Positions 26,162-38,256 of a DNA stretch of 64,000 bases are shown here, piece by piece; positions within the stretch are counted from its first letter, which is position 1, and each line of letters begins with the position of its first letter. Position numbers and translations under genes: made by a program. Source of the stretch: Candidatus Hodarchaeota archaeon (lineage in GTDB: Archaea; Asgardarchaeota; Lokiarchaeia; Sigyniarchaeales; SOKP01); assembly GCA_048886685.1 (NCBI GenBank), contig JBHLKM010000001.1:96001-160000 (forward strand), written 5' to 3'. Under the pieces are notes generated by a model. The model did not search any database. It was not told the DNA's origin and was given only the letters and a program-made list of their open reading frames with translations.

Positions 26162-27313
26162 TTATAATCCAACAATATTTATTGGTGAAGAATCATTGTC
26201 CGAATCTACAGCCGCTTGTACATACGGGGATATGGGTCCATTTGCCAGAACCATAATTTTAACTTTGGATCCCATATCTGGTTTGTTTTGTACTCCAAAT
26301 TTTAGTTGAGCTTCCTCAGGAATTTCACTTGTAATAGTAGATACAACACTATCTACCTTTGATAATGGTAAAGTATGATCACCGGTAACAGATACTATAC
26401 ACCGTTCAACTTTTTTAGGGTCAGGTTGTAAAAGCGGATTATTAATGGCTAATCTGGATTTCTCAATTAAATCGGATTCGTCTCCCACTGACTCTGCAAT
26501 ACCTATTAAGCCTGTAGGATAATCTCCTTTTTTTACAAAAATACGTTTCACATCAGCATAATCTATGTTGACTAGACCACAGTTGTTGATTAAGTTAACG
26601 ACTTCGCCAATATTCCTAATTAAGACCTCATCCATTATTTTAAAACCTGTTATCATTGGAATCTTTCCCACGATTCCCAAAAGATTATCATTTGGGACTG
26701 TTATTAAAAAATCAGAATAATCTGCCAAATTTTTAAGTCCTAATTTTGCTCTTACACTTCGTTGAACTCCTTCTGATTTGAATGGAAGTGAACAGAAGGT
26801 GACTACAATAGCATTGTTTTTTTTTGCCTCTTCTGCAATAACAGGCGCTGCTCCGGTTCCCGTTCCCCCACCTAAACCACAAGTTAAAAAGACAATATCT
26901 GCATTAAGGACTTTATTCAATCTATCTCTATCTTCTTCGGCAGCCGCGGTTCCAATCAAAGGATCATTCCCTGAACCCATACCTTGACATCGTTCCTTCC
27001 CAATTAGAACTTTCTGACTTGCATTTGAATAATACAAGTCATGTGCATCAGTATTTATACAAATTGTCTCAGCATTATTTATGCCCATATCCTCCAAACG
27101 TGAAACAGTGTTATTTCCAGCGCCCCCCACTCCTACTACCTGTGTTTTTACTTTTAAAACTTTCAATAAGTCTGCTAAATACTTGTCATCGTCACAATTT
27201 GGGTTTGTATTAGGATTTTGATTATGACGGGCGATTTCATTGAACCGTTCTCTTGCTGATGTTCGAGATTTTGCCATTTCTAAAATATCATCAAAACTCA
27301 TAAAATTCATCAA
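26162..27313 (-). CDS. ftsZ: Cell division protein FtsZ
   Basis: VVGVGGAGNN, NTD, GLGGGTGTG, PF.SEG, NDNL, VNIDYAD. Confidence 0.93.
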   Translation of the reverse strand: MMNFMSFDDILEMAKSRTSARERFNEIARHNQNPNTNPNCDDDKYLADLLKVLKVKTQVVGVGGAGNNTVSRLEDMGINNAETICINTDAHDLYYSNASQKVLIGKERCQGMGSGNDPLIGTAAAEEDRDRLNKVLNADIVFLTCGLGGGTGTGAAPVIAEEAKKNNAIVVTFCSLPFKSEGVQRSVRAKLGLKNLADYSDFLITVPNDNLLGIVGKIPMITGFKIMDEVLIRNIGEVVNLINNCGLVNIDYADVKRIFVKKGDYPTGLIGIAESVGDESDLIEKSRLAINNPLLQPDPKKVERCIVSVTGDHTLPLSKVDSVVSTITSEIPEEAQLKFGVQNKPDMGSKVKIMVLANGPISPYVQAAVDSDNDSSPINIVGL

Positions 27314-27560
27314 ATGAAATGAGGTTTTTATAATACGAGAAAAATATCGGAATAATATATGAAAGTAATATGAAGATAATACGCATATTACGTCTGTATT
27401 ATATCCATTAAACTATGACTTTCTTAATATTATTTTGAAATTCCTATTTAAATTTGAATCGTATATCGATTTTTTCAACTGAAACATAGGACAAAACGCT
27501 GGAGAAAAAAGTTTATAAGTCTATATTTTCATGAATATCATACTATTAGGGATATTTCAA

Positions 27561-27800
27561 ATGGAAATCAATAATACTCGAAATAACAGCAAAGAATCCG
27601 TGGAAAGCTCGAAACATGATGAGCCAATACAAGTGCGTGCTATCATTTCCTGTCCGAACTGTGGCTATAAGAAGAAGTTCAGAAATCAATTTCTTAGAAA
27701 AGATCTTGAATTACTCACAGTAGCAGTTAAGGTCTTCGAGTTTATCACATGCAATAAATGCGGAGATCTTATAAAACTTGATTTAGAGCTAAGTATATGA
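27561..27800 (+). CDS. Small zinc-ribbon protein
   Basis: CPNC...CNKC; AGGGA upstream of ATG 27561. Confidence 0.65.
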   Translation: MEINNTRNNSKESVESSKHDEPIQVRAIISCPNCGYKKKFRNQFLRKDLELLTVAVKVFEFITCNKCGDLIKLDLELSI

Positions 27801-27883
27801 TTAATCTTTTTCAATTCTATATTTGAATCTTTAATACCGACTCAATATCTTGATTTAAAATTCTCAATTTTCAAATCTTCAAT

Positions 27884-29194
27884 TTAGAGATCCAAATTAA
27901 TATTACCATATGTGCCTCCACCACCAGGTGTATAGCTAATTTCATTTTTTCTAAGAGCATTTACAATTAAAGCGAGAGTTTGGTCATATTCCTCAATTTT
28001 ACTTATTGGAGTATCAATTAAAATCTCAAACTCTGTTCCAAGCGTTTGAATAATCTTATTATATTCATTTAAAACTGTCTTACTTGCTGTACTTTTGATA
28101 CCTTTAATCGAACGGATTATATCTATTAATGGAACCGCATTTATATAAGGGGGTCGATGATCTGGATTTTCAGTTTCATTATATGTAGATATTTTTTCAA
28201 TTCTTTCGCTGACTCCCAATTTTATTTTGAAATTCTTATTATATTCCTCTTTACAAGCGGGACAGTTCATTTTATTTTTTGCTACCTGTTCTATATAGTC
28301 TATTCTAGAAGAATTAGGATTATTTGAATAATATATAACAAAATTTTCAGTTATAGAGTACTGATTAAAGACTGTACTGACTTGCTTTTTCGCTTTCCTA
28401 AAAAGGATCCTTCTTCTACATTTACTGCAAAACATATTATAGTATTTACCAAGCTTAGGGTGAAGACCAACATTAAGTATAATCTTTCTCCCATTTCTTC
28501 TCATTAGTGCCAATAAAATTTCGTCAAAAGAGGGATTATCAAGGTCAAACCTATTGAATTCCCGTCCCAAAGATCGAGGATTTTGAGAGTGAGCATCACT
28601 ATTGCTTAAGAATGAGACATTTTTTAAAGATTCAAGCCTATCTGCTAAATCTGTGTTAGCAGATAAACCCAATTCTAAAAAATACACATTTTTCACATTG
28701 TCTTGATAACAGTCCTTTAAAGTTTCGAATTTACCTTGACGAAAAATCGCTTTAAAGGGTGTGAAAGCATGAGCTGGGCCAATAATGCCCCCAGCATCTG
28801 TTATTAAATCAACTAGTTCAGATGGAGATAAATTAACTCTAGGTCTGCCACCCCACTCATCTAAAATATTTTTAGAGTGTGATTTTAATTTATTTTGGAT
28901 TTCTTTAACTGAAGTAAAATCGGGAAATAACATAACATGATGAATACTTTCCCTATCTTCTATTTCTGTCTGAAGGATGAAAAATATATCTTTATATGAA
29001 AAGGATCCATCGTTTTGGTGTTTCAAATTACGTTCCATGTATTTAAGCCATTCTGGTTGTAAAATATCTCCAGTACCAAGAATATTTAAACCTTTTTTCT
29101 TACAGGTCTCCAACATTGTATCTAAATTTAATGATTTCGATACTGCGATTGAATGAGGACTATGTATGTGGAGATCAGCGTTAAATATATCCAT
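27884..29194 (-). CDS. Endonuclease Q family (PHP domain, TIGR00375-like)
   Basis: ADLHIHS, PAHAFTP, ELGLSA, SNSDAHS, GKY, CxxC..CxxC, PGGGG.YG. Confidence 0.88.
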   Translation of the reverse strand: MDIFNADLHIHSPHSIAVSKSLNLDTMLETCKKKGLNILGTGDILQPEWLKYMERNLKHQNDGSFSYKDIFFILQTEIEDRESIHHVMLFPDFTSVKEIQNKLKSHSKNILDEWGGRPRVNLSPSELVDLITDAGGIIGPAHAFTPFKAIFRQGKFETLKDCYQDNVKNVYFLELGLSANTDLADRLESLKNVSFLSNSDAHSQNPRSLGREFNRFDLDNPSFDEILLALMRRNGRKIILNVGLHPKLGKYYNMFCSKCRRRILFRKAKKQVSTVFNQYSITENFVIYYSNNPNSSRIDYIEQVAKNKMNCPACKEEYNKNFKIKLGVSERIEKISTYNETENPDHRPPYINAVPLIDIIRSIKGIKSTASKTVLNEYNKIIQTLGTEFEILIDTPISKIEEYDQTLALIVNALRKNEISYTPGGGGTYGNINLDL

Positions 29195-29253
29195 CAGTTA
29201 TTAAAAACCATAATTCAATAAAAAGATTTTAATAAGGGATTAATTAATCGGTT

Positions 29254-30303
29254 TCAATTTGTGATAAGCATTTTATCTTTGATTTGATCAGTTAGTAAAA
29301 TTCGATAATACTCTGATTTATTTTTATAATTAACTTTTTCTAGCTTTCCTTCCACGATAACTGTTTCTCCTTCCTTAGCCTGCTCACAAAAACGTGCTCT
29401 AAAAGAGTTTATTTCCAAAATATCATTAAAATTGATTTCATTTGAGGTCAAGTTTTTCTCTAAGATTTTTATATTATTGATTTTATAAGAACAAGGAGTA
29501 AAAATAGAATCTTTAGAATCCGTGATTAAAGCTTTTACTTTAATTCTACCAAAGTTTGAATATTTAAAATCATAATAATTACCCTCCCAATCTTTAGGGC
29601 CCTTTATATATCGAATAAAATAATGTGACCCATGGAATTTACCTTGATGTAGTTTTCTTTGTTCACTCTGTACGAATTCTTCAAAAGAGACACCAGATCC
29701 TCCAACTCTCCAATTATAATGAGATTTATACTCATCCATATCATACATTCTTAATTTATTGGATTCTTCTAATAGGAGTTTTAGTTTTTCTTGGAATCTA
29801 TAACTATTCTTCGTTCCATAGATAATAATATCAATATCTGAGTCCTCCTTATTCAAACCAACCATAACAGATCCAGTAATTCCTATTAAATCTTGAGAGA
29901 TACCTCCCTTATCTATGAATAATTCACATAAACTTTTGGAATATTGTTCTGTGTTGGAGAGTTTTTCTTTTTTTTCCAAACTCTTTAAACAGTCTCTTGG
30001 AGTATATATCTTCTTAATATCTTGAATTTTTACTCCTTGTAATTCTAAATTAAGTTCTTCGGAAGAAAAAAGGTATTTAGGATATTTAGTTCTTAATAGG
30101 GAGTATCGTTCCTCCAATTCATATACTTTTTTGAATTTAACACCCTTTTTTATCCTATCTCCTTCGGGATGAGGATAGAATCTTAAGAAGCAAATTTTCC
30201 TGTCATTTGGATGAAGTAGGCCTTTAATATCAAAAAATAAATTATCTTCCTTAGTTTCTATATAATCTCCCTCAATTCCCTTGGATATTTTCATAAAGGT
30301 CAC
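29254..30303 (-). CDS. Pol-beta-like nucleotidyltransferase domain protein (COG1665-like)
   Basis: GITGSVMVGL...SDID motif. Confidence 0.75.
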   Translation of the reverse strand: MTFMKISKGIEGDYIETKEDNLFFDIKGLLHPNDRKICFLRFYPHPEGDRIKKGVKFKKVYELEERYSLLRTKYPKYLFSSEELNLELQGVKIQDIKKIYTPRDCLKSLEKKEKLSNTEQYSKSLCELFIDKGGISQDLIGITGSVMVGLNKEDSDIDIIIYGTKNSYRFQEKLKLLLEESNKLRMYDMDEYKSHYNWRVGGSGVSFEEFVQSEQRKLHQGKFHGSHYFIRYIKGPKDWEGNYYDFKYSNFGRIKVKALITDSKDSIFTPCSYKINNIKILEKNLTSNEINFNDILEINSFRARFCEQAKEGETVIVEGKLEKVNYKNKSEYYRILLTDQIKDKMLITN

Positions 30304-30314
30304 TATATTATTGA

Positions 30315-31451
30315 TTAATATTTTGAAGGAGTCTTTGATTTAATCTTATGTTTTGGAATAGTTTTGATCTTTCTTATTTCTCTTTCAAAATCTCGCTTTT
30401 CATTTAGAAATCTTTGTTTATCTTTTTCTAGCTTTTCTCTTTCACGTTTAATAGTGTTTTTTTCGCTTTCCAATAATGTTTTTTCTTTTGCTAATTGTTT
30501 ATATTCATTATTTAGTTTTCTAAGCTTTTCTTCTAAATTCGGAATTTTATTGGTTAAAGAGTAATATGTATCTTCTGCTCGAGGAATTTTTCTTTCTAAT
30601 TCTTTATACCTTGCTTCTTGTTGTCGCTTTCTATTCTCCGAATCTCTTACTTCTCTTTCAACCTTATCCCTATAATTTTTTAAATCTGCTTTTTTCTTAT
30701 CAATTTCGCGGGCTTTAAGATCTAAATTTTGCTTTTCATATCGTGTTTTTTCTCTTTCTTCTTTTAGTTTTCTCTTTGCATCAGCTATTCGATTCTTTTC
30801 ATCAGTAATCTCCCTTTTTTTATTATTTACTTCTCTTTCCAAATTATCTCTTTCTCTAGTTAGATTTTTAATTTCATTTCTTAAATCCATTAATTTATCC
30901 TCTAAATCTTTGTTAGTTCTTTCTAAAGCACTTTCTCTTCTTTCCATGCCCGGAAGTTTAGTTTTAATTTCCTCTATGCGATTTTCTGTTCTTTCTCTTT
31001 CTCTCTCTAAATTACGCTTTTCTTTCCCTATTTCTTCACGTAATTTGTCTAATTTCTCTTGGAATTTCTCTAATTGAGCATTTTTTTCATCTAATTCTTC
31101 ATTTTTTCGTCTAAATTTATCTCTAAATTGCCTTTCTTTGATAGCTAATTCGTTCTTATTCTGTTCTAACTCATTTCTCGATTTTTTCAGCTCATTTCGT
31201 AAGTTATCCCTTCGTTCAAGAAGATTTTTAACTTCTAGTTCAATATCTTTTCTCTTCTTTTCGAGATCCTTTATATTATCATTGTAATTTTCAATTTGAT
31301 TAACAATTCTTTCCCATTCACTTTTTTCTTTATCTAAAGCAATTCTCTCCTTTTTTAATTTTTTTAACAGCTTTTTATCTGGGATCTCATCTATTTCTTC
31401 ATCTGGTGTTTTTTCTCGAATCTGATGTTTGGGAATAGGTTTTTCATTCAT
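30315..31451 (-). CDS. Long coiled-coil protein with matching terminal IPKHxIxxKTP motifs
   Basis: About 330 aa of E/K/R/L heptads; N-terminal IPKHQIREKTP and C-terminal IPKHKIKSKTP. Confidence 0.8.
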   Translation of the reverse strand: MNEKPIPKHQIREKTPDEEIDEIPDKKLLKKLKKERIALDKEKSEWERIVNQIENYNDNIKDLEKKRKDIELEVKNLLERRDNLRNELKKSRNELEQNKNELAIKERQFRDKFRRKNEELDEKNAQLEKFQEKLDKLREEIGKEKRNLERERERTENRIEEIKTKLPGMERRESALERTNKDLEDKLMDLRNEIKNLTRERDNLEREVNNKKREITDEKNRIADAKRKLKEEREKTRYEKQNLDLKAREIDKKKADLKNYRDKVEREVRDSENRKRQQEARYKELERKIPRAEDTYYSLTNKIPNLEEKLRKLNNEYKQLAKEKTLLESEKNTIKREREKLEKDKQRFLNEKRDFEREIRKIKTIPKHKIKSKTPSKY

Positions 31452-31667
31452 AAATGCTCATTTATTATCTAATTTTGCTAATAAATTCATATTAATCCTA
31501 ACTCTAAAGTGTTTTGTATTTGAAATTGTATTAATTAAATTTTTCTATGGGTAGAATCGATTTATATATTAATTATACCTTCTATTATTTCTATAAAGAA
31601 TATACAAAAAACAATTGACATAATCACTAAAATTAATTATTTTAATAAGAAAGTAGGTGTTGAAATA

Positions 31668-32051
31668 ATGGGTTATGATGATGAGTTTGATGAGGAATTT
31701 GATGAAGAATTAGACGAGGATTTAGATGAAGATTTAGAAGAACCTTCTACAAAGACTCCCGAAGAAGTAGTTGAATCCAAAACTCCCGCAGTTATTACTG
31801 AAGGCAAAAAGATTTCTGTATATTTCATGTCAACTATTGGACCTGGCGAAAAAAAACAGAAATTAAATGTAAATACGGGCAACAATGTTGGGGATGTTAA
31901 AGAAACGGTAGCAAACTTATTTGGATTAGATCCGGCTGATTTTCATTTATCATCGGGTGGAGTTACTATGGATGAGGGTTCATTTTTAAAAGATTATAAT
32001 ATAAGTGATGGCGATGACATATTATTAATTCCAGCAAGTACAGCTGGTTAA
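31668..32051 (+). CDS. Ubiquitin-like protein 1 with acidic N-terminal tail, C-terminus ...IPASTAG
   Basis: Beta-grasp pattern (V.DVK..VA..FG, L..GG, L.DYNI.DGD.I.L); AGGTG RBS; next to the E1/E2 genes. Confidence 0.88.
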   Translation: MGYDDEFDEEFDEELDEDLDEDLEEPSTKTPEEVVESKTPAVITEGKKISVYFMSTIGPGEKKQKLNVNTGNNVGDVKETVANLFGLDPADFHLSSGGVTMDEGSFLKDYNISDGDDILLIPASTAG

Positions 32052-32095
32052 AATTTTAGGAAATAGTAAATTGCTTTAAATATCATTTACTTTTT

Positions 32096-32890
32096 TTATC
32101 CTCTATCTTTTCTTGAGGGAATTAGAGCTATTTCATCATCATCTTCTAAATTAAAGTCTTTTATTTGTGAGGTTTCGTCTAATAATATCCCTCCTGAAGA
32201 GAGTAGAAAACTTTCTAGATTATAATCAAATAACCTTCCAATTTTTTCTTTGATAATACCAACTAATTCACTAGTATCTATTATTATTATTTTTGTTTTA
32301 TCACCTGCCTCAACTAATGATCTTATGTAAACACGGATTTGGTCTTCAGTATCAAAAGTGTTTATAATTGGTGGATAAGTAATGTTCTCATCAGTTATAT
32401 CTCTATTTCTCAACATATTTTCAATTAATGTTTTTCTCTCATTTGAGTCAAAATAAAGCATTTCCCGAATAAAAAAAATCTTGTCCATTTTTGATAAATT
32501 TAGTAGATTTATTTTATTTATTTCTTCTTGACTAAAAACTGAAAAAATGTACTTATCGATTATTGTCATATCCTTATAGGATTCATTGCTTTCAACATAT
32601 TCTTTAATTTGAGGCATTGCATCAATATATTCTTCAATTATTTCAGATGATTTCATTTTAATTGATTTTGGTTCAGGTAAATATTTTTTTTTCTTAAATT
32701 TATCATCCCAACTACCTTTAGAATGGATAACTGTATACACAGTACTAGTAGAAAGTACTGAAACACTACCTATTGATATAATAAAGAATAGGGAATAATT
32801 TTCTATATGAAATAGGAAAAAAGAGGCATAAATCAAAATACAAACTGTATAAAGAGCAATAACAATTAAAATTCTATTTTTTTTCCTCAT
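32096..32890 (-). CDS. 2-TM membrane protein with C-terminal ubiquitin-like domain
   Basis: Two N-terminal TM helices; C-terminal LSSGGILLDE..IKDFNLEDDDEIALIP clearly homologous to the flanking Ubls; ends in Gly. Confidence 0.8.
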   Translation of the reverse strand: MRKKNRILIVIALYTVCILIYASFFLFHIENYSLFFIISIGSVSVLSTSTVYTVIHSKGSWDDKFKKKKYLPEPKSIKMKSSEIIEEYIDAMPQIKEYVESNESYKDMTIIDKYIFSVFSQEEINKINLLNLSKMDKIFFIREMLYFDSNERKTLIENMLRNRDITDENITYPPIINTFDTEDQIRVYIRSLVEAGDKTKIIIIDTSELVGIIKEKIGRLFDYNLESFLLSSGGILLDETSQIKDFNLEDDDEIALIPSRKDRG

Positions 32891-32975
32891 GATTTTTTAA
32901 TTAGATTGTTTTCTGAATTTAAAATATATAATTTAAAATTTAAATGAGATTGGAATAAAATTGAAGTTTTTATCT

Positions 32976-33647
32976 TTAATCGCCTTGAATTAAATTTTTA
33001 ACCTTTATATAATTCTTTACATCAAATTTGAACAGTTTTCTTTTATTGTCTTTCTCAATATTTACTAATTTCAGATCTGTTAAGATACCTAAATATTTTT
33101 TAATTGTGTTATGATTTTTTTTCATCCCAGATGCAATTTCTGTAATTTTTAATGCTTTATTCTCTTGCCTCATAAAATCAATTATTTCTTGAAGAATTTG
33201 TTTCCGCAAATAATAGTATAGGTCATCATATTTAGGATTTGAATCAAATTTAAAGAAAATTCTATGATTGTTGATTTGCTTTGATCTTACGAATTGGAAT
33301 TTTTCTAAACATGATAAGTGCCATAAAGCTTGATTACTTCCGATTTGCAGAACTTTCATTATTTCATTAATATTTGATGGATTCTTTTTAATGTAATTAA
33401 AAATTTCATTTCTTTTAGGATGTTCTATAATGTTATTTTTCATTAATCTGGTACCAGGAAGAATAACTCTTCGTTTAATTAAATCTTTTAAGATAAGCTC
33501 TATTCTATTCTCGTTTATATTAGGATTATACCTTACCCTATTATTAATAAATGATATAATTTCTCTTAGGGAAAAGAAGGTCTTTTTCGCTAAATATTCT
33601 TCTACTAATTCAAGAACAACAGATTCAGCATTATCCAGAGAATTCAT
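32976..33647 (-). CDS. Tandem winged-helix transcriptional regulator
   Basis: R..IF.YIK.NP..INEI...WHL..LE and second HTH ITEIA...HNTIKKYL. Confidence 0.8.
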   Translation of the reverse strand: MNSLDNAESVVLELVEEYLAKKTFFSLREIISFINNRVRYNPNINENRIELILKDLIKRRVILPGTRLMKNNIIEHPKRNEIFNYIKKNPSNINEIMKVLQIGSNQALWHLSCLEKFQFVRSKQINNHRIFFKFDSNPKYDDLYYYLRKQILQEIIDFMRQENKALKITEIASGMKKNHNTIKKYLGILTDLKLVNIEKDNKRKLFKFDVKNYIKVKNLIQGD

Positions 33648-33921
33648 GAGCTTATAATTTTATTGTGTTAAAAATTTTGGTCTTGTAAATTTGTATTCTC
33701 TTTAAAGCAACATTTTATTGAATATATATAATAATAGGCATTCATACAATTTATAATATAATTTCTTATAAGTCTTAATTTGCTCCATCTCATTTTTGAT
33801 ATAACCGCAAAAAACTTCAAAATCATTCCAAAGGATTTTATATTATCTTTTTAATGCGATTTTATTAAGTTAATAAAAAATAACAAATAACAAAAAAAAA
33901 TAAAAAAAAGGAGTGTTTTAA

Positions 33922-34254
33922 ATGAGTTTTGATGAATTTGAGGAGGACTTAGGTGAGGAGGAACCTTTAAAATCTAAAACTCCCGCCACTAAAACCCCTT
34001 CCACAGGAAAAAAACTTACTTTATATTTCATGTCAACTATTGGTCCTGGTGAAAAGAAGGAAAAATTAACAGTAAATGACAGTAATCAAGTAAGAGATAT
34101 TAAGCGAACTTTAGGTAATCTATATGGACTTGATCCTAATGACTTTCATTTATCTTCAGGTGGAGTAACAATGGATGAAAATAGTTCTTTAAGAGACTAT
34201 AATGTAAACGATGGCGATGATATTCTTTTGATCCCTGCGAGTACTGCGGGGTAA
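33922..34254 (+). CDS. Ubiquitin-like protein 2 with acidic N-terminal tail, C-terminus ...IPASTAG
   Basis: 62/82 aa identical to Ubl1 over the folded domain (hand count); AGGAG RBS; first gene of the E1-E2-JAB-E3 run. Confidence 0.9.
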   Translation: MSFDEFEEDLGEEEPLKSKTPATKTPSTGKKLTLYFMSTIGPGEKKEKLTVNDSNQVRDIKRTLGNLYGLDPNDFHLSSGGVTMDENSSLRDYNVNDGDDILLIPASTAG

Positions 34255-34313: not shown

Positions 34314-34333
34314 ATTTATTATTGGTGATAATA

Positions 34334-35557
34334 TTGAAAAAGAGTTCAGATTTTTTTAGTAAAGACCTAACATCGGAAGAAAGAAATTTATATGACCGAC
34401 AATTTAGACTTGAAGGATGGTCACAGAAACTAGTAAAAAATTCAAGAGTTTTAATGGTAGGGGTCGGGGGATTAGGGTGTGAAATTGCCAAGAACCTAGC
34501 AATGTTAGGTGTGGGCCATATAGATTTAGTAGATTTAGATATTATAGAACATTCAAATTTAAATCGTCAAATTTTATTCGCAGGTGCTAAGTTGGGAGAA
34601 CCTAAAGCGATAGTAGCAGCAAAAAAATTGATTGAAATTAATCCGAATATAATTATTAAAGGATATCATAGTTCCCTAGAAAGATTGGATCCAGCATTAT
34701 ATCAAGCTGCTGATGTCGTCGTAGGTGGTCTTGACTCCATGAACGCTCGGTTGAATTTAAATGCTCAATGTATAAGATTTAGAAAACCGTTAGTAGATGG
34801 AGGTGTATCAGGTTATCATGGTCACGTTTATACAGTTTTTCCTTACAAAAATGCGTGTTATGAATGCAATCCACTCCCAGTAGGAGAAAATGATGAGATG
34901 GCAGCATGTACAGTCGTAGGTGTGCCAAGAAAAAGAATCCATTGCGTTTTCAAAGGAGATATGGCCTTTAAGGAAGAATTTGACAGGGATCCTAATCCAA
35001 AGAATATTAGTGATATAAAATTTATTCAAAAAATTGCTAACGAACTAGTAGATAAACACAACTTTCCTCCTGAGTATACTGAAGATGATATAGTTAAAAT
35101 TATTGATAGGCATGATCCTGGAATTATAACCATCAATGCTGTCATTTCTGCATTACAATCACATGAAGTTGTAAAAATCCTTCATTGGAAAAAAGGTCAT
35201 AAGGGTTTAGGTGAACCAATTAAATCCTACGTTATTTTCAATGCTATAACAATGATGTTTTATCATATTGAAAAGAAAAGAAATCCAGAATGTTCTCAAT
35301 GCGGGAAAAATGTTCGAAGATTCGTAGTCAAGTTGAAAAGGAGTTCTCCATGTATTAATATAATAAAAACCTTAGAAAATTATGGCTTTAAATTAAACCC
35401 TGATCTGGAACCCGTTATAACATTACTGGATTTTAATGACGTCAAGATGATTGATTTAGAACAGAATCCAATTGACAATAATTTACGAAATTATGAATTT
35501 ATGACAATTGCAGGCTTTATAGAAGGAGAAATTTTTGTAACCTTAAAATTAAAATAA
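34334..35557 (+). CDS. Ubiquitin-like activating enzyme E1 (ThiF/UBA family, UBA2/UBA3-like)
   Basis: YDRQ, GVGGLGCE, D.D.IE.SNLNRQ, CYEC, catalytic ACTVVGVPRKRIHC, PGIITINAVIS, CSQC; TTG start 5 nt after GGTGA. Confidence 0.93.
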   Translation: MKKSSDFFSKDLTSEERNLYDRQFRLEGWSQKLVKNSRVLMVGVGGLGCEIAKNLAMLGVGHIDLVDLDIIEHSNLNRQILFAGAKLGEPKAIVAAKKLIEINPNIIIKGYHSSLERLDPALYQAADVVVGGLDSMNARLNLNAQCIRFRKPLVDGGVSGYHGHVYTVFPYKNACYECNPLPVGENDEMAACTVVGVPRKRIHCVFKGDMAFKEEFDRDPNPKNISDIKFIQKIANELVDKHNFPPEYTEDDIVKIIDRHDPGIITINAVISALQSHEVVKILHWKKGHKGLGEPIKSYVIFNAITMMFYHIEKKRNPECSQCGKNVRRFVVKLKRSSPCINIIKTLENYGFKLNPDLEPVITLLDFNDVKMIDLEQNPIDNNLRNYEFMTIAGFIEGEIFVTLKLK

Positions 35558-35666: not shown

Positions 35667-36194
35667 ATGAGTATAAGAAGTAGTCGAATCTCACAAGATT
35701 TTGCTGGATTAAAAAAATTATATAAACAAGGAACAATTGTTCAGTTAAAACCATTTAATCCTCAAAGAAAGAGTATTGATCATTTAGCAATAACTATTAA
35801 AGGACCTAAGGGTACCGCTTATGCAGGTGGTCTTTTTAAATTAGAAATGAAATTCCCTGCTCAGTATCCTAGGCAACCACCTTTTGTTAGATTACATACT
35901 CCAATTTGGCATCCAAATTTCTGGGCAAAACCGAATGAATATAAAGGACAGAGAAATATTTGTTTAGCGTTAGTAGATCCATCTTTAGTTGGAAAAAAAG
36001 GTGGGTGGAGTCCATCAAAAACAGCTGTTACTGTCGTTCAGGCTATAATTGCGATGTTAAATACACGAGGCAAGTATGTAAATCCAACTGATGTTTTCAA
36101 TAAGAAAGCAGCGATAGAGATGATGAAAAATCAGAAGTTTTTTGAGAAAAAAGTGAAAAATCTCGTTAAAAAGTATGCTAATAAGAAGTGGTGA
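35667..36194 (+). CDS. Ubiquitin-conjugating enzyme E2 (UBC fold)
   Basis: GPKGTAYAGGLF, FP.QYP..PP, WHPN...ICL, WSP. Confidence 0.93.
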   Translation: MSIRSSRISQDFAGLKKLYKQGTIVQLKPFNPQRKSIDHLAITIKGPKGTAYAGGLFKLEMKFPAQYPRQPPFVRLHTPIWHPNFWAKPNEYKGQRNICLALVDPSLVGKKGGWSPSKTAVTVVQAIIAMLNTRGKYVNPTDVFNKKAAIEMMKNQKFFEKKVKNLVKKYANKKW

Positions 36195-37021
36195 AAAATA
36201 AAATGGGAGAAGAAAATTCACATATAGACTCTATTAAAGAAACAATAAAATTGAAAATTAAAGACATAATAAAGAAGGAGTTGTTAGAGGAAATTTATGA
36301 AGAATTAAAATTAGAAGAAAAAGAATTAGTTAATGAAATTAGTTCGATGATTTCTAAAAAAAGTCCTGAAAGACAAACGATTAAGCATTCAGCTACCATT
36401 CCCACCAAATCAGAGACAATAAAAGTAGAGGAAAAAAGTATTGATGAAGATAAAATAGAAAAAGAGGTATACATTTCTGTTAAAGCAATTCTAAAAGTGG
36501 CAAGTCATGCGCTTAAATATGCGAATCCTAAAATTCCTAGACAGAGTTGGGTAGAAGTAATAGGGTTACTTGCAGGAAAGGTAGATGATAAGAATGGCAT
36601 TTTACATATTGAGGATTACTATCCTATGGGTCATGGAACAGCAGTTTATGCCGAAATAAAAGATTATAGAAACTATGCTAGAGCTTTCCAAGATATTAAA
36701 AAACAAAAGTTATTTATCTGTGGTTGGGCTCATAGTCATCCTTCTTACGGATGCTTTATGTCTAGTGAAGATATTGGTACTCAATCAAGATATCAAAAAC
36801 TTTGGAACAAAGCTGTTGCCCTTGTTATCGATCCATACCTTATTGATGGAACATCAGCTGGTTTTGAGATTTATCGAGCGGATTTAACCACAAAGAGTTG
36901 GTACCCTTTAGTTTATGGCATTAAAGGGTCATTAGACATTCGCATGCTCCCAGAAATACTAAATTTTATGAATCCGATAATTGAAGGGAAAGCAATTTAT
37001 CTTGAATATGATGAAAATTGA
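36188..37021 (+). CDS. JAB/MPN+ metalloprotease, Rpn11/CSN5-like
   Basis: VYIS..A.LK..SHA, EVIGLL.G, GWAHSHPSYGCFMSSED, AVALVIDP. Confidence 0.92.
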   Translation: MVKNKMGEENSHIDSIKETIKLKIKDIIKKELLEEIYEELKLEEKELVNEISSMISKKSPERQTIKHSATIPTKSETIKVEEKSIDEDKIEKEVYISVKAILKVASHALKYANPKIPRQSWVEVIGLLAGKVDDKNGILHIEDYYPMGHGTAVYAEIKDYRNYARAFQDIKKQKLFICGWAHSHPSYGCFMSSEDIGTQSRYQKLWNKAVALVIDPYLIDGTSAGFEIYRADLTTKSWYPLVYGIKGSLDIRMLPEILNFMNPIIEGKAIYLEYDEN

Positions 37022-37050: not shown

Positions 37051-38256
37051 GTGGCAAAAATTAAATCTGTGGCAATTGTTTTGGTTATATTTCTATTAAT
37101 AGGCATAATACATGGTATTATTTCAGATTCATTAAATGTATTTGTAAGTTGGTTATTGATTGGAATCTGGTTGATATTTTCTTTTAAGGTTCTAAAAAAT
37201 ATTAAGCAGTATCGTGAATATAATTCACCTCATAATACTGCATTTTTTACAATTGCTCCTGTCTTTTTTGGAATTTTTTATTCAATCTGGGGAAATTTTA
37301 CAGGTTTATTAGGTGAAAATCTTCTAGAAGATACAGATTTATATTTAAGCTGGTGGAGTATTCTTTTTGGATTTCCATATATATTATATGGTTCTATTTC
37401 TCTGTATCGTTGTTTCAAAAAATTTAATGTGATTTATTTTGGAACTAAATCAGTAAATGCACGTAAATTTGGATACATTTTAGGCATCTCAATCCTATCT
37501 TTTATACTTATTTATTGGATAAGTTTTTATTCACTTATCGACTTCTATGATTCTTATTTAGTACCTCTTCACTTTTTAGTAGATCTAAATCTTTTAATCT
37601 TGCTTATCAGTACAATATTAATAATAATTATCCCGGGATTGTTTGGAGCCCAAACAAGATTACCCCAATTAACAAGAGATTATATAACACAAAGAACAAA
37701 TCGATTAAACCAATTAACCTCACCTACAAGCAATGGAACTCCTAGAAGATATAGAGAGAGCGTTCGGAAAACAACAAGAACATCTCCAACTCCCATAACC
37801 AGAACTGTTACGAGTAGATCAAGTTCAATTAGCCATTCTTCAAGAACAACACCCACAATGCACAGTCGATCTACAACTTCAAGGTCCAAAACAGCTACTC
37901 GAACTGTAAGCAGAGGTTCGGCAGGAACGCAAGTAAGAAGCAAACAAAGCACCAAAAAGATAAGTAATTTTAATCTGTATAAACCAAGAGCGGCACGTCT
38001 GTCAACAGAGGATTTTAAATGTATCTTTTGTTTTAAATTACCGAAATTTCCTGAAGATAGGGGAAGAGGAATAATTTTGTGTCCTAATTGTCGATATCCT
38101 GCTCATGCAGACGAATTTAAAGATTGGTTACGAAGTTCAAACCTCTGTTCTCGATGCAACGCGCCAATTCCAGCCAGTTACAGAAAAAATCCTAAAGTAT
38201 TGACTATCAAAAATTATATAGTCGTAGTCAAGCATTTTGTAAATAATAGGAAATAA
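37051..38256 (+). CDS. Multi-pass membrane protein with S/T/R-rich linker and C-terminal RING-variant (putative E3 ligase)
   Basis: About 6 TM segments; C-x2-C-x16-C-x2-C-x4-H-x2-E-x3-W-x6-C-x2-C at 38020-38157; last gene of the E1-E2-JAB run. Confidence 0.8.
   Translation: MAKIKSVAIVLVIFLLIGIIHGIISDSLNVFVSWLLIGIWLIFSFKVLKNIKQYREYNSPHNTAFFTIAPVFFGIFYSIWGNFTGLLGENLLEDTDLYLSWWSILFGFPYILYGSISLYRCFKKFNVIYFGTKSVNARKFGYILGISILSFILIYWISFYSLIDFYDSYLVPLHFLVDLNLLILLISTILIIIIPGLFGAQTRLPQLTRDYITQRTNRLNQLTSPTSNGTPRRYRESVRKTTRTSPTPITRTVTSRSSSISHSSRTTPTMHSRSTTSRSKTATRTVSRGSAGTQVRSKQSTKKISNFNLYKPRAARLSTEDFKCIFCFKLPKFPEDRGRGIILCPNCRYPAHADEFKDWLRSSNLCSRCNAPIPASYRKNPKVLTIKNYIVVVKHFVNNRK

Follow-up and report, generated by a model that had tools for sequence, protein, structure and literature searches.

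A lysine–proline motif shared by ubiquitin-like modifier tails and a co-encoded array protein of Asgard archaea is a likely acceptor-lysine code

Ubiquitin cascades of archaea have been reconstituted in vitro, yet almost no natural substrates have been reported for them, and an acceptor consensus was not found in the literature searched. The closest described systems are the operons of Caldiarchaeum subterraneum and of Asgard archaea (Helarchaeia), in which ubiquitin is clustered with an activating enzyme (E1), a conjugating enzyme (E2), a RING protein and Rpn11 (PMC5654768; 10.1101/2023.07.25.550441). According to the accessible parts of these reports, the Caldiarchaeum RING protein is small and soluble and no natural substrate is known (PMC5654768), the Helarchaeia substrate is UEV-Vps23 (10.1101/2023.07.25.550441), and an acceptor consensus is described in neither. 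Here we analyse a Lokiarchaeia cluster with the same five parts, ubiquitin-like protein (Ubl), E1, E2, JAMM isopeptidase and RING protein, located in a 64,000-nucleotide stretch (the window; C1:96001-160000) of the 4.4 Mb genome GCA_048886685.1, the relatives of which belong to the Promethearchaeia/Lokiarchaeia. The cascade is of the E1-E2-RING-JAMM ubiquitin-like type, an already known kind. However, whereas those parts of the earlier reports describe di-Gly ubiquitin, the Ubl of this locus ends in Ala-Gly and has an acidic, motif-bearing tail, the RING-like protein is a membrane protein, and a neighbouring gene encodes a protein with an array of the same motif. We find that the motif is real and strongly selected, and it is likely to be an acceptor-lysine code.

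A reading made from the sequence alone (the sequence-only reading) had pointed to six Lys-Thr-Pro (KTP) copies in disordered segments of three proteins, a coiled-coil protein (the rod) and two Ubls. All six were confirmed (rod K14 and K373, Ubl1 K29 and K38, Ubl2 K19 and K24), as was the scarcity of KTP in the rest of the window, where only about three further copies lie in plausible genes. The claim of exactly two copies per protein holds for the exact KTPs of this locus; it is not a conserved feature, rod orthologs having 1–7. Three internal degenerate copies in the rod (K165, K288 and K302) had been overlooked, and all three prolines within the rod fall in them. The motif carriers and the motif copies are as follows.

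30315–31451, minus strand: coiled-coil motif carrier (rod), 378 residues, net charge +23, with 41 close orthologs in synteny
31404–31436, minus strand: rod N-terminal motif, residues 6–16, I11-x-x-K14-T-P16 (K14-T-P at 31404–31412)
30951–30968, minus strand: rod internal degenerate copy I162-x-x-K165-L-P167
30582–30599, minus strand: rod internal degenerate copy L285-x-x-K288-I-P290
30540–30557, minus strand: rod internal degenerate copy L299-x-x-K302-I-P304, Pro retained in about half of the orthologs
30327–30359, minus strand: rod C-terminal motif, residues 365–375, I370-x-x-K373-T-P375 (K373-T-P at 30327–30335), present as 2–4 tandem repeats in many orthologs
31668–32051, plus strand: Ubl1, 127 residues, beta-grasp core preceded by a very acidic tail of net charge −19, C-terminus Thr-Ala-Gly
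31752–31760, plus strand: Ubl1 K29-T-P, weakly conserved (Lys in 33/45 and Thr in 13/45 orthologs)
31779–31787, plus strand: Ubl1 K38-T-P, conserved (Lys and Pro each in 45/45 orthologs)
33922–34254, plus strand: Ubl2, 110 residues, disordered tail 1–24, ubiquitin fold, C-terminus Thr-Ala-Gly, first gene of the operon
33976–33999, plus strand: Ubl2 tandem motif, K19-T-P (33976) and K24-T-P (33991)

In the 615 residues of the three proteins, 0.09 KTP copies are expected (Poisson P ~9e-10, calculated post hoc), and when the four tails were shuffled 200,000 times at constant composition, the highest count was four. Only 13 of the 3767 proteins of the genome have two KTPs, and three of the 13 are the rod, Ubl1 and Ubl2. 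Over the whole genome KTP is not enriched (195 seen, 190 expected) and so gives no sign of a large pool of substrates. Lys, Thr, Ser and Pro are abundant in the tails, as would suit an origin by chance, low complexity or DNA-level repetition, but the shuffles fall short, the codons of the 11-residue unit common to the two rod ends differ at synonymous positions, and the motif is conserved over several Asgard families. This origin is already refuted by the ortholog conservation, trees and held-out carriers described below. The disorder of the tail was borne out for Ubl2, residues 1–24 of which have a predicted local distance difference test score (pLDDT) below 50 in the AlphaFold2 model.

The motif is wider than KTP and can be written as [IVLMP]-x-[STEDQ]-K-[TIV/K]-P. 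The density of this extended motif is 4–10 per 1000 residues in the rod and Ubls against 0.07 in the proteome, and the rod is the sole protein of the genome with four copies. The motif occurs in none of the E1, E2, JAMM, RING and winged-helix proteins of any locus and hardly at all in the membrane Ubl, which is non-conjugatable. When sites were defined by their flanks (hydrophobic at −3, Thr, Ile or Val at +1, Pro at +2) and position 0 was left free, this position was occupied by Lys in 323 cases, by Arg in none and by other residues in 20, whereas position −2 of the same sites was Lys 170 times and Arg 62 times. Since Arg is barred at position 0 but frequent at −2, lysine chemistry and not charge appears to be what is selected. 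Similarly, 113 of 120 additional Ubl homologs have Lys at the motif position and none has Arg. Lys was also found at −2 of 119 of the 123 internal prolines of 52 rod orthologs, and Arg at none, these prolines representing only about three independent sites that are missing in some distant rods.

The residue between Lys and Pro is far less constrained. It is Thr in 407 K-x-P sites, Ile or Val in 83, Lys or Arg in 39 and Ser in 15, and whole arrays in the Heimdallarchaeaceae, as well as the second Hodarchaeales Ubl, have K-I-P or K-V-P. Lys and Pro define the motif and the hydroxyl does not, because Ile, Val and Lys replace Thr far more often than Ser does. A proline-directed phospho-site on the Thr, which had been put forward as an alternative, is thus improbable as the general function: Thr-Pro is dominant in the Lokiarchaeia and the first Ubl copy retains Thr throughout the phylum, but a Ser or Thr before Pro is not otherwise kept. 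Phosphorylation could still tune a subset of the sites. As far as substitutions can tell, the pattern favours an acceptor lysine or a docking peptide over phosphorylation.

The sequence-only reading would have fallen if KTP were not conserved in orthologs; Lys and Pro proved to be invariant at the rod ends and in the Ubl tails, and the alignments and trees point to strong selection on the motif in rod and Ubls alike. The gene order of the cluster is maintained at about 40 related loci. K14, P16 and K373 are invariant in the 41 close rod orthologs. In an alignment of 31 rods (27–85% identity), five of the 13 invariant columns lie within the two terminal motifs, I11, K14 and P16 among them. The N-terminal motif shows no change on the tree, and of the 69 rod lysines only three never change by tree counts, K14 and K373 being among these three. 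The residues around Lys and Pro in the disordered ends vary freely, and in many orthologs the termini are expanded to 2–5 tandem copies; copy number is therefore free, the motif is not. Ubl2 K19 and K24 are both Lys in all 48 operon copies and all 27 stand-alone copies (75/75), Thr of the second motif being replaced by Ile or Val in 13 of the 48. On the phylum-wide tree, K19-T20-P21 does not change at all, whereas adjoining residues change 6–23 times. The close loci had been chosen by likeness to Ubl2, and a more distant search was added for that reason. The Ubl core is present in 122 of 300 Asgard genomes, and nearly all distant Ubls (45–55% core identity) have one to three motifs in the acidic tail. 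The cultured Ca. Lokiarchaeum ossiferum B35 has the operon (Ubl NEF87_002996, E1 002995, E2 002994, RING 002992) and an adjacent rod, probably NEF87_002997, with seven motif copies. In G212, a genome of the same family in a single contig of 4.4 Mb, two queries gave no match.

The stand-alone Ubl2 copies occur in many Lokiarchaeia (L006, L012, L016-L018, L020, L026 and others), are 78–91% identical and lie far from the operon in varied neighbourhoods, always with both motif lysines. Two proteins, P0039 and P0040, are head-to-tail di-Ubl precursors resembling polyubiquitin genes, in which each unit has its own acidic tail and two motifs.

The full Ubl-E1-E2-JAMM-RING set is also present in all of the following families, which were assigned from the source names of their members: Heimdallarchaeaceae (f7), Hodarchaeales (f24, some members of which are otherwise labelled) and the Borrarchaeum-like f18/f12. 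The carrier of f18 is a rod. In the Heimdallarchaeaceae it is a basic, Pro-rich, low-hydrophobicity protein of 211–267 residues encoded head-to-head with the Ubl. A similar basic disordered protein is encoded in the Hodarchaeales after the RING gene and a six-helix membrane gene, and a similar disordered carrier was found at one f16 locus. The Hodarchaeales have an additional VapB/ribbon-helix-helix-type regulator with one central motif copy. BLAST linked the two disordered families neither to each other nor to the rod; they may be diverged orthologs, with the membrane gene as a common neighbour. A search of the ESM Atlas with a disordered carrier gave no usable match. New f7 and f24 loci fetched via their Ubl tails served as a held-out test: all 15 operons with a RING gene encode a disordered protein with 6–13 K-[TIVKR]-P copies, K-[TIV]-P is in every case more frequent than in shuffles of the same protein (P 0.014 or less), and x in x-[TIV]-P is Lys 101 times and Arg once. 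A DNA pattern for tandem motifs, which was noisy and used to locate loci only, matched in 56/67, 24/28, 9/11 and 15/21 cases in Ubl-bearing families and in 25/76, about the control level, in f9, where the Ubl was not found; two matches (L174 and L175) were rejected as chance hits without an operon.

The disordered carriers are very basic (net charge +20 to +55) and Pro-rich, and their repeats might be basic turns that bind nucleic acid or membrane, like the S/TPKK turns of histone H1, the likeness to the Ubl tails being incidental. This is hardly probable: the motif is invariant in strongly acidic Ubl tails too, the residues after Pro are often Ser, Asp, Glu or Ala, and Arg would do as well as Lys.

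Three further observations concern these lineages. A multi-pass membrane protein of about 195 residues, without a Pfam match, is encoded after the RING gene in the Heimdallarchaeaceae, Hodarchaeales, f16 and f30 (L140:3615-4202, L144:3921-4466, L148:3259-3837, L151:3168-3743); one query did not find it in the genome studied here. Inserted in one Heimdallarchaeaceae cluster is a gene for an additional small membrane protein, the ends of which are Zn-finger and RING-like (L143:7401-7994). Locus L176 (G243, f24) has the Ubl, E1, E2 and JAMM genes, a degenerate Ubl motif, no RING gene and no array, possibly an artefact, the genome being 70% complete and partly masked.

The other genes of the Lokiarchaeia cluster, including the operon headed by Ubl2, are listed below.

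32096–32890, minus strand: membrane-anchored Ubl-domain protein without a conserved C-terminal Gly and without the motif
32976–33647, minus strand: winged-helix regulator without the motif
34322–35557, plus strand: E1 of the ThiF family, GxGxxG present, catalytic Cys-Thr motif close to residue 196
35667–36194, plus strand: E2 with HPN84, C99 and D142 and two 7-residue lineage-specific insertions around the catalytic Cys; candidate motif reader
36188–37021, plus strand: JAMM/JAB isopeptidase, HxH...SxxD intact
37051–38256, plus strand: multi-pass membrane protein with a C-terminal RING-like Cys/His domain

The catalytic residues of E1, E2 and JAMM are all intact. The RING-like domain has seven invariant Cys/His residues and an invariant Glu at the sixth ligand position and gave no match in Pfam. 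Ubl1 is encoded head-to-head with the rod. The rod has three heptad segments (period 3.5) interrupted by prolines, gave only generic coiled-coil matches in Pfam, all below the cut-off, and in an extended form would measure roughly 50 nm.

We put at roughly 60% the probability that the motif is an acceptor-lysine consensus read by E2, through which Ubls are joined into chains by their tails and a dedicated substrate is tagged at several sites. E1 would activate the single-Gly Ubl and hand it to E2, which, probably with the help of the RING protein at the membrane, would bind the extended peptide and join the Ubl to the motif lysine, and the JAMM enzyme would take it off again. With the motif in the Ubl tail, tail-linked chains could form, as on K11 of SUMO2/3. 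The basic array protein of each operon, the rod in the Lokiarchaeia and the Borrarchaeum-like family and the Pro-rich disordered protein in the Heimdallarchaeaceae and Hodarchaeales, is a candidate dedicated substrate of the pathway, and acidic Ubls placed on it would reverse its charge or turn it into a multivalent scaffold. The earlier proposal of KTP as an acceptor-lysine consensus thus gains from the selection and the Lys-never-Arg pattern, acceptor status itself being inferred.

There are precedents for acceptor sequences read by an E2, namely psi-K-x-E recognised by Ubc9 together with the SUMO2/3 K11 tail chains (PMC4869838), and the sequence-dependent, E3-free ubiquitination of SETDB1 by UBE2E1 (PDB 8IYA; PMC10858943). 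As in SUMO, a flexible N-terminal modifier tail shares the lysine motif of the candidate substrates, the E2 is highly conserved and the sites are disordered. Unlike in SUMO, the motif has a hydrophobic residue or Pro at −3, Pro at +2 and no Glu, so that psi-K-x-E is not matched, and the system has a single terminal Gly, a one-subunit ThiF E1, a JAMM enzyme instead of a SENP protease and a co-encoded array protein. In the UBE2E1-SETDB1 pair, too, the acceptor lysine lies in a short peptide that is recognised by an E2, but the enzyme is a human ubiquitin E2, the peptide is unrelated and the modifier lacks the motif. UFM1, like the Ubl described here, has a single C-terminal Gly.

Membership of the SUMO, UFM1 and di-Gly ubiquitin families was rejected. 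Rad60-SLD matched below the cut-off and more weakly than ubiquitin, 46/46 Ubls matching best as ubiquitin family. The UFM1 family PF03671 of Pfam was found in 0/46 Ubls and not in this genome, and the E2 is canonical in HPN and Cys; Ufm1 homologues have been reported from Asgard archaea (PMC12962969). A di-Gly ubiquitin of the Caldiarchaeum type is contradicted by the invariant A109-G110 of Ubl2 and the Thr/Ile/Val-Ala-Gly terminus of all orthologs, although the best structural match of the Ubl2 model in Foldseek was Caldiarchaeum ubiquitin. An incomplete literature search found no description of this motif or Ubl family.

The E2 is the most conserved enzyme of the cluster, with 54–63% identity to distant families (E1 43–46%, JAMM 39–45%, RING 22–39%), and its two 7-residue insertions beside C99 are rich in invariant residues. 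It is nearest to the Ubc13, UBE2T and UBE2D types, and Ubc9 is no nearer to it than ubiquitin E2s are. Elsewhere in this genome (G000 C13:88370-92732) there are genes for another E2, 40% identical, and for a 527-residue E1 (48% over the N-terminal part).

A complex prediction was made with four chains, E2, RING, the Ubl core and rod tail 345–378, and scored 0.54 against 0.02 for the best control and 0.00 when E2 was replaced, with at least 69% contact agreement between runs and a partner pLDDT of at least 62. The mark applied was reached by 58/80 solved complexes and 2/110 mismatched pairs, and those reaching it with scores of 0.60 or under comprised 7/80 solved complexes and both mismatches. 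The model thus lends weak support to binding of the C-terminal 34 residues of the rod by the E2/RING/Ubl assembly, with a score in the weak zone and the partner left unassigned, and it counts for little here. Such a prediction cannot separate substrate binding from a non-covalent docking peptide for E2, RING, JAMM or E1, in which case the array would be a multivalent adaptor or inhibitor gathering enzymes and the Ubl tail would recruit them for processive tagging. The beta-branched residue at +1 and the hydrophobic residue or Pro at −3 suit an extended docking peptide, but total exclusion of Arg at one position with free swapping at −2 is unusual for surface docking, and in the AlphaFold2 model the tail does not fold back on the core of the Ubl. 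We regard docking as possible but clearly less probable than the acceptor-lysine consensus.

Several points weigh against the acceptor-lysine consensus. The Lys-not-Arg pattern also fits a Lys-specific docking pocket, acetylation or methylation, and Lys-rich tails are substrates of Asgard lysine acetyltransferases (10.64898/2026.07.02.735847). Acetylation or methylation of the motif lysine, regulating the Ubl and its partner, is nevertheless unlikely, since the motif does not extend beyond the modifier and other products of the conjugation cluster; a constantly neighbouring gene for an acetyl- or methyltransferase was not recognised, without a systematic search. According to the accessible part of the report, both a foreign substrate and ubiquitin itself were modified on several lysines by the Caldiarchaeum cascade (PMC5654768), so that a strict consensus is not to be expected by default. 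The motif is lost in some Ubl paralogs (L125, L129 and the second copy of L149). Counts over relatives are not independent, and Fisher and binomial P values, in which relatives are taken as independent, overstate the case; tree-based counts are therefore preferred. Tandem repeats may bias alignments. In the complex prediction, replacing E2 broke the RING/Ubl assembly as well, so that the binding partner is not cleanly assigned; no contacts were obtained from the weak-zone model, which could echo solved E2-peptide structures, memory of complexes such as 8IYA being a possible contribution.

The cross-linkable filament or tether that had been suggested for the rod found no support. The rod shape is not common to the lineages, the carrier being disordered in the Heimdallarchaeaceae and Hodarchaeales, and Ubl chains cannot covalently bridge two rods, because a chain offers a single free C-terminus and the last residue of the rod is Tyr instead of Gly. 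Another kind of assembly may be tentatively considered. A Roadblock/LC7-Ubl fusion of this genome (L183:620-1453, G000 C2:401620-402453, minus strand), conserved in at least one relative (L184:283-1206), has one linker motif and an intact Ala-Gly end. A HerA/DUF87 ATPase-Ubl fusion that also ends in Ala-Gly, with no motif before the Ubl, adjoins the rod gene in the Borrarchaeum-like lineage (L152:10072-11814; L153:1910 onward). Their retained Ala-Gly ends raise the option, from sequence, that whole proteins could be tethered to the array. It is conceivable, if doubtful, that Asgard archaea including the Hodarchaeales use sequence-coded covalent assembly, in which a basic array scaffold is loaded site by site with acidic Ubl chains and whole Ubl-fusion proteins, so that proteins are tethered near a membrane ligase. 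Such a consensus-site code of prokaryotes would run parallel to SUMO and be independent of it. In some Lokiarchaeia (L104, L106, L107, L185) the RING gene is followed downstream by genes for further proteins of about 255–300 residues with a C-terminal Ubl of this family, some with a degenerate motif before the Ubl. An FtsZ-like gene and genes for a small Zn-finger, a PHP-domain protein and a nucleotidyltransferase (window 26162–30303) keep their place beside the cluster, but only in close relatives.

The system is present in the cultured Ca. Lokiarchaeum ossiferum, for which public proteomes exist (PXD074767, PXD068820; cited in PMC13716822), and can be tested now; a standard di-Gly search would miss its conjugates because of the long tryptic remnant of this Ubl, calculated as 14 residues and +1310.67 Da (+597.31 Da after chymotrypsin). 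A motif common to the modifier and the co-encoded array protein in the Lokiarchaeia, Heimdallarchaeaceae and Hodarchaeales names candidate substrates down to the exact residues. It suggests an archaeal counterpart of consensus-site tagging and tail-linked chains, which are deemed features of SUMO.

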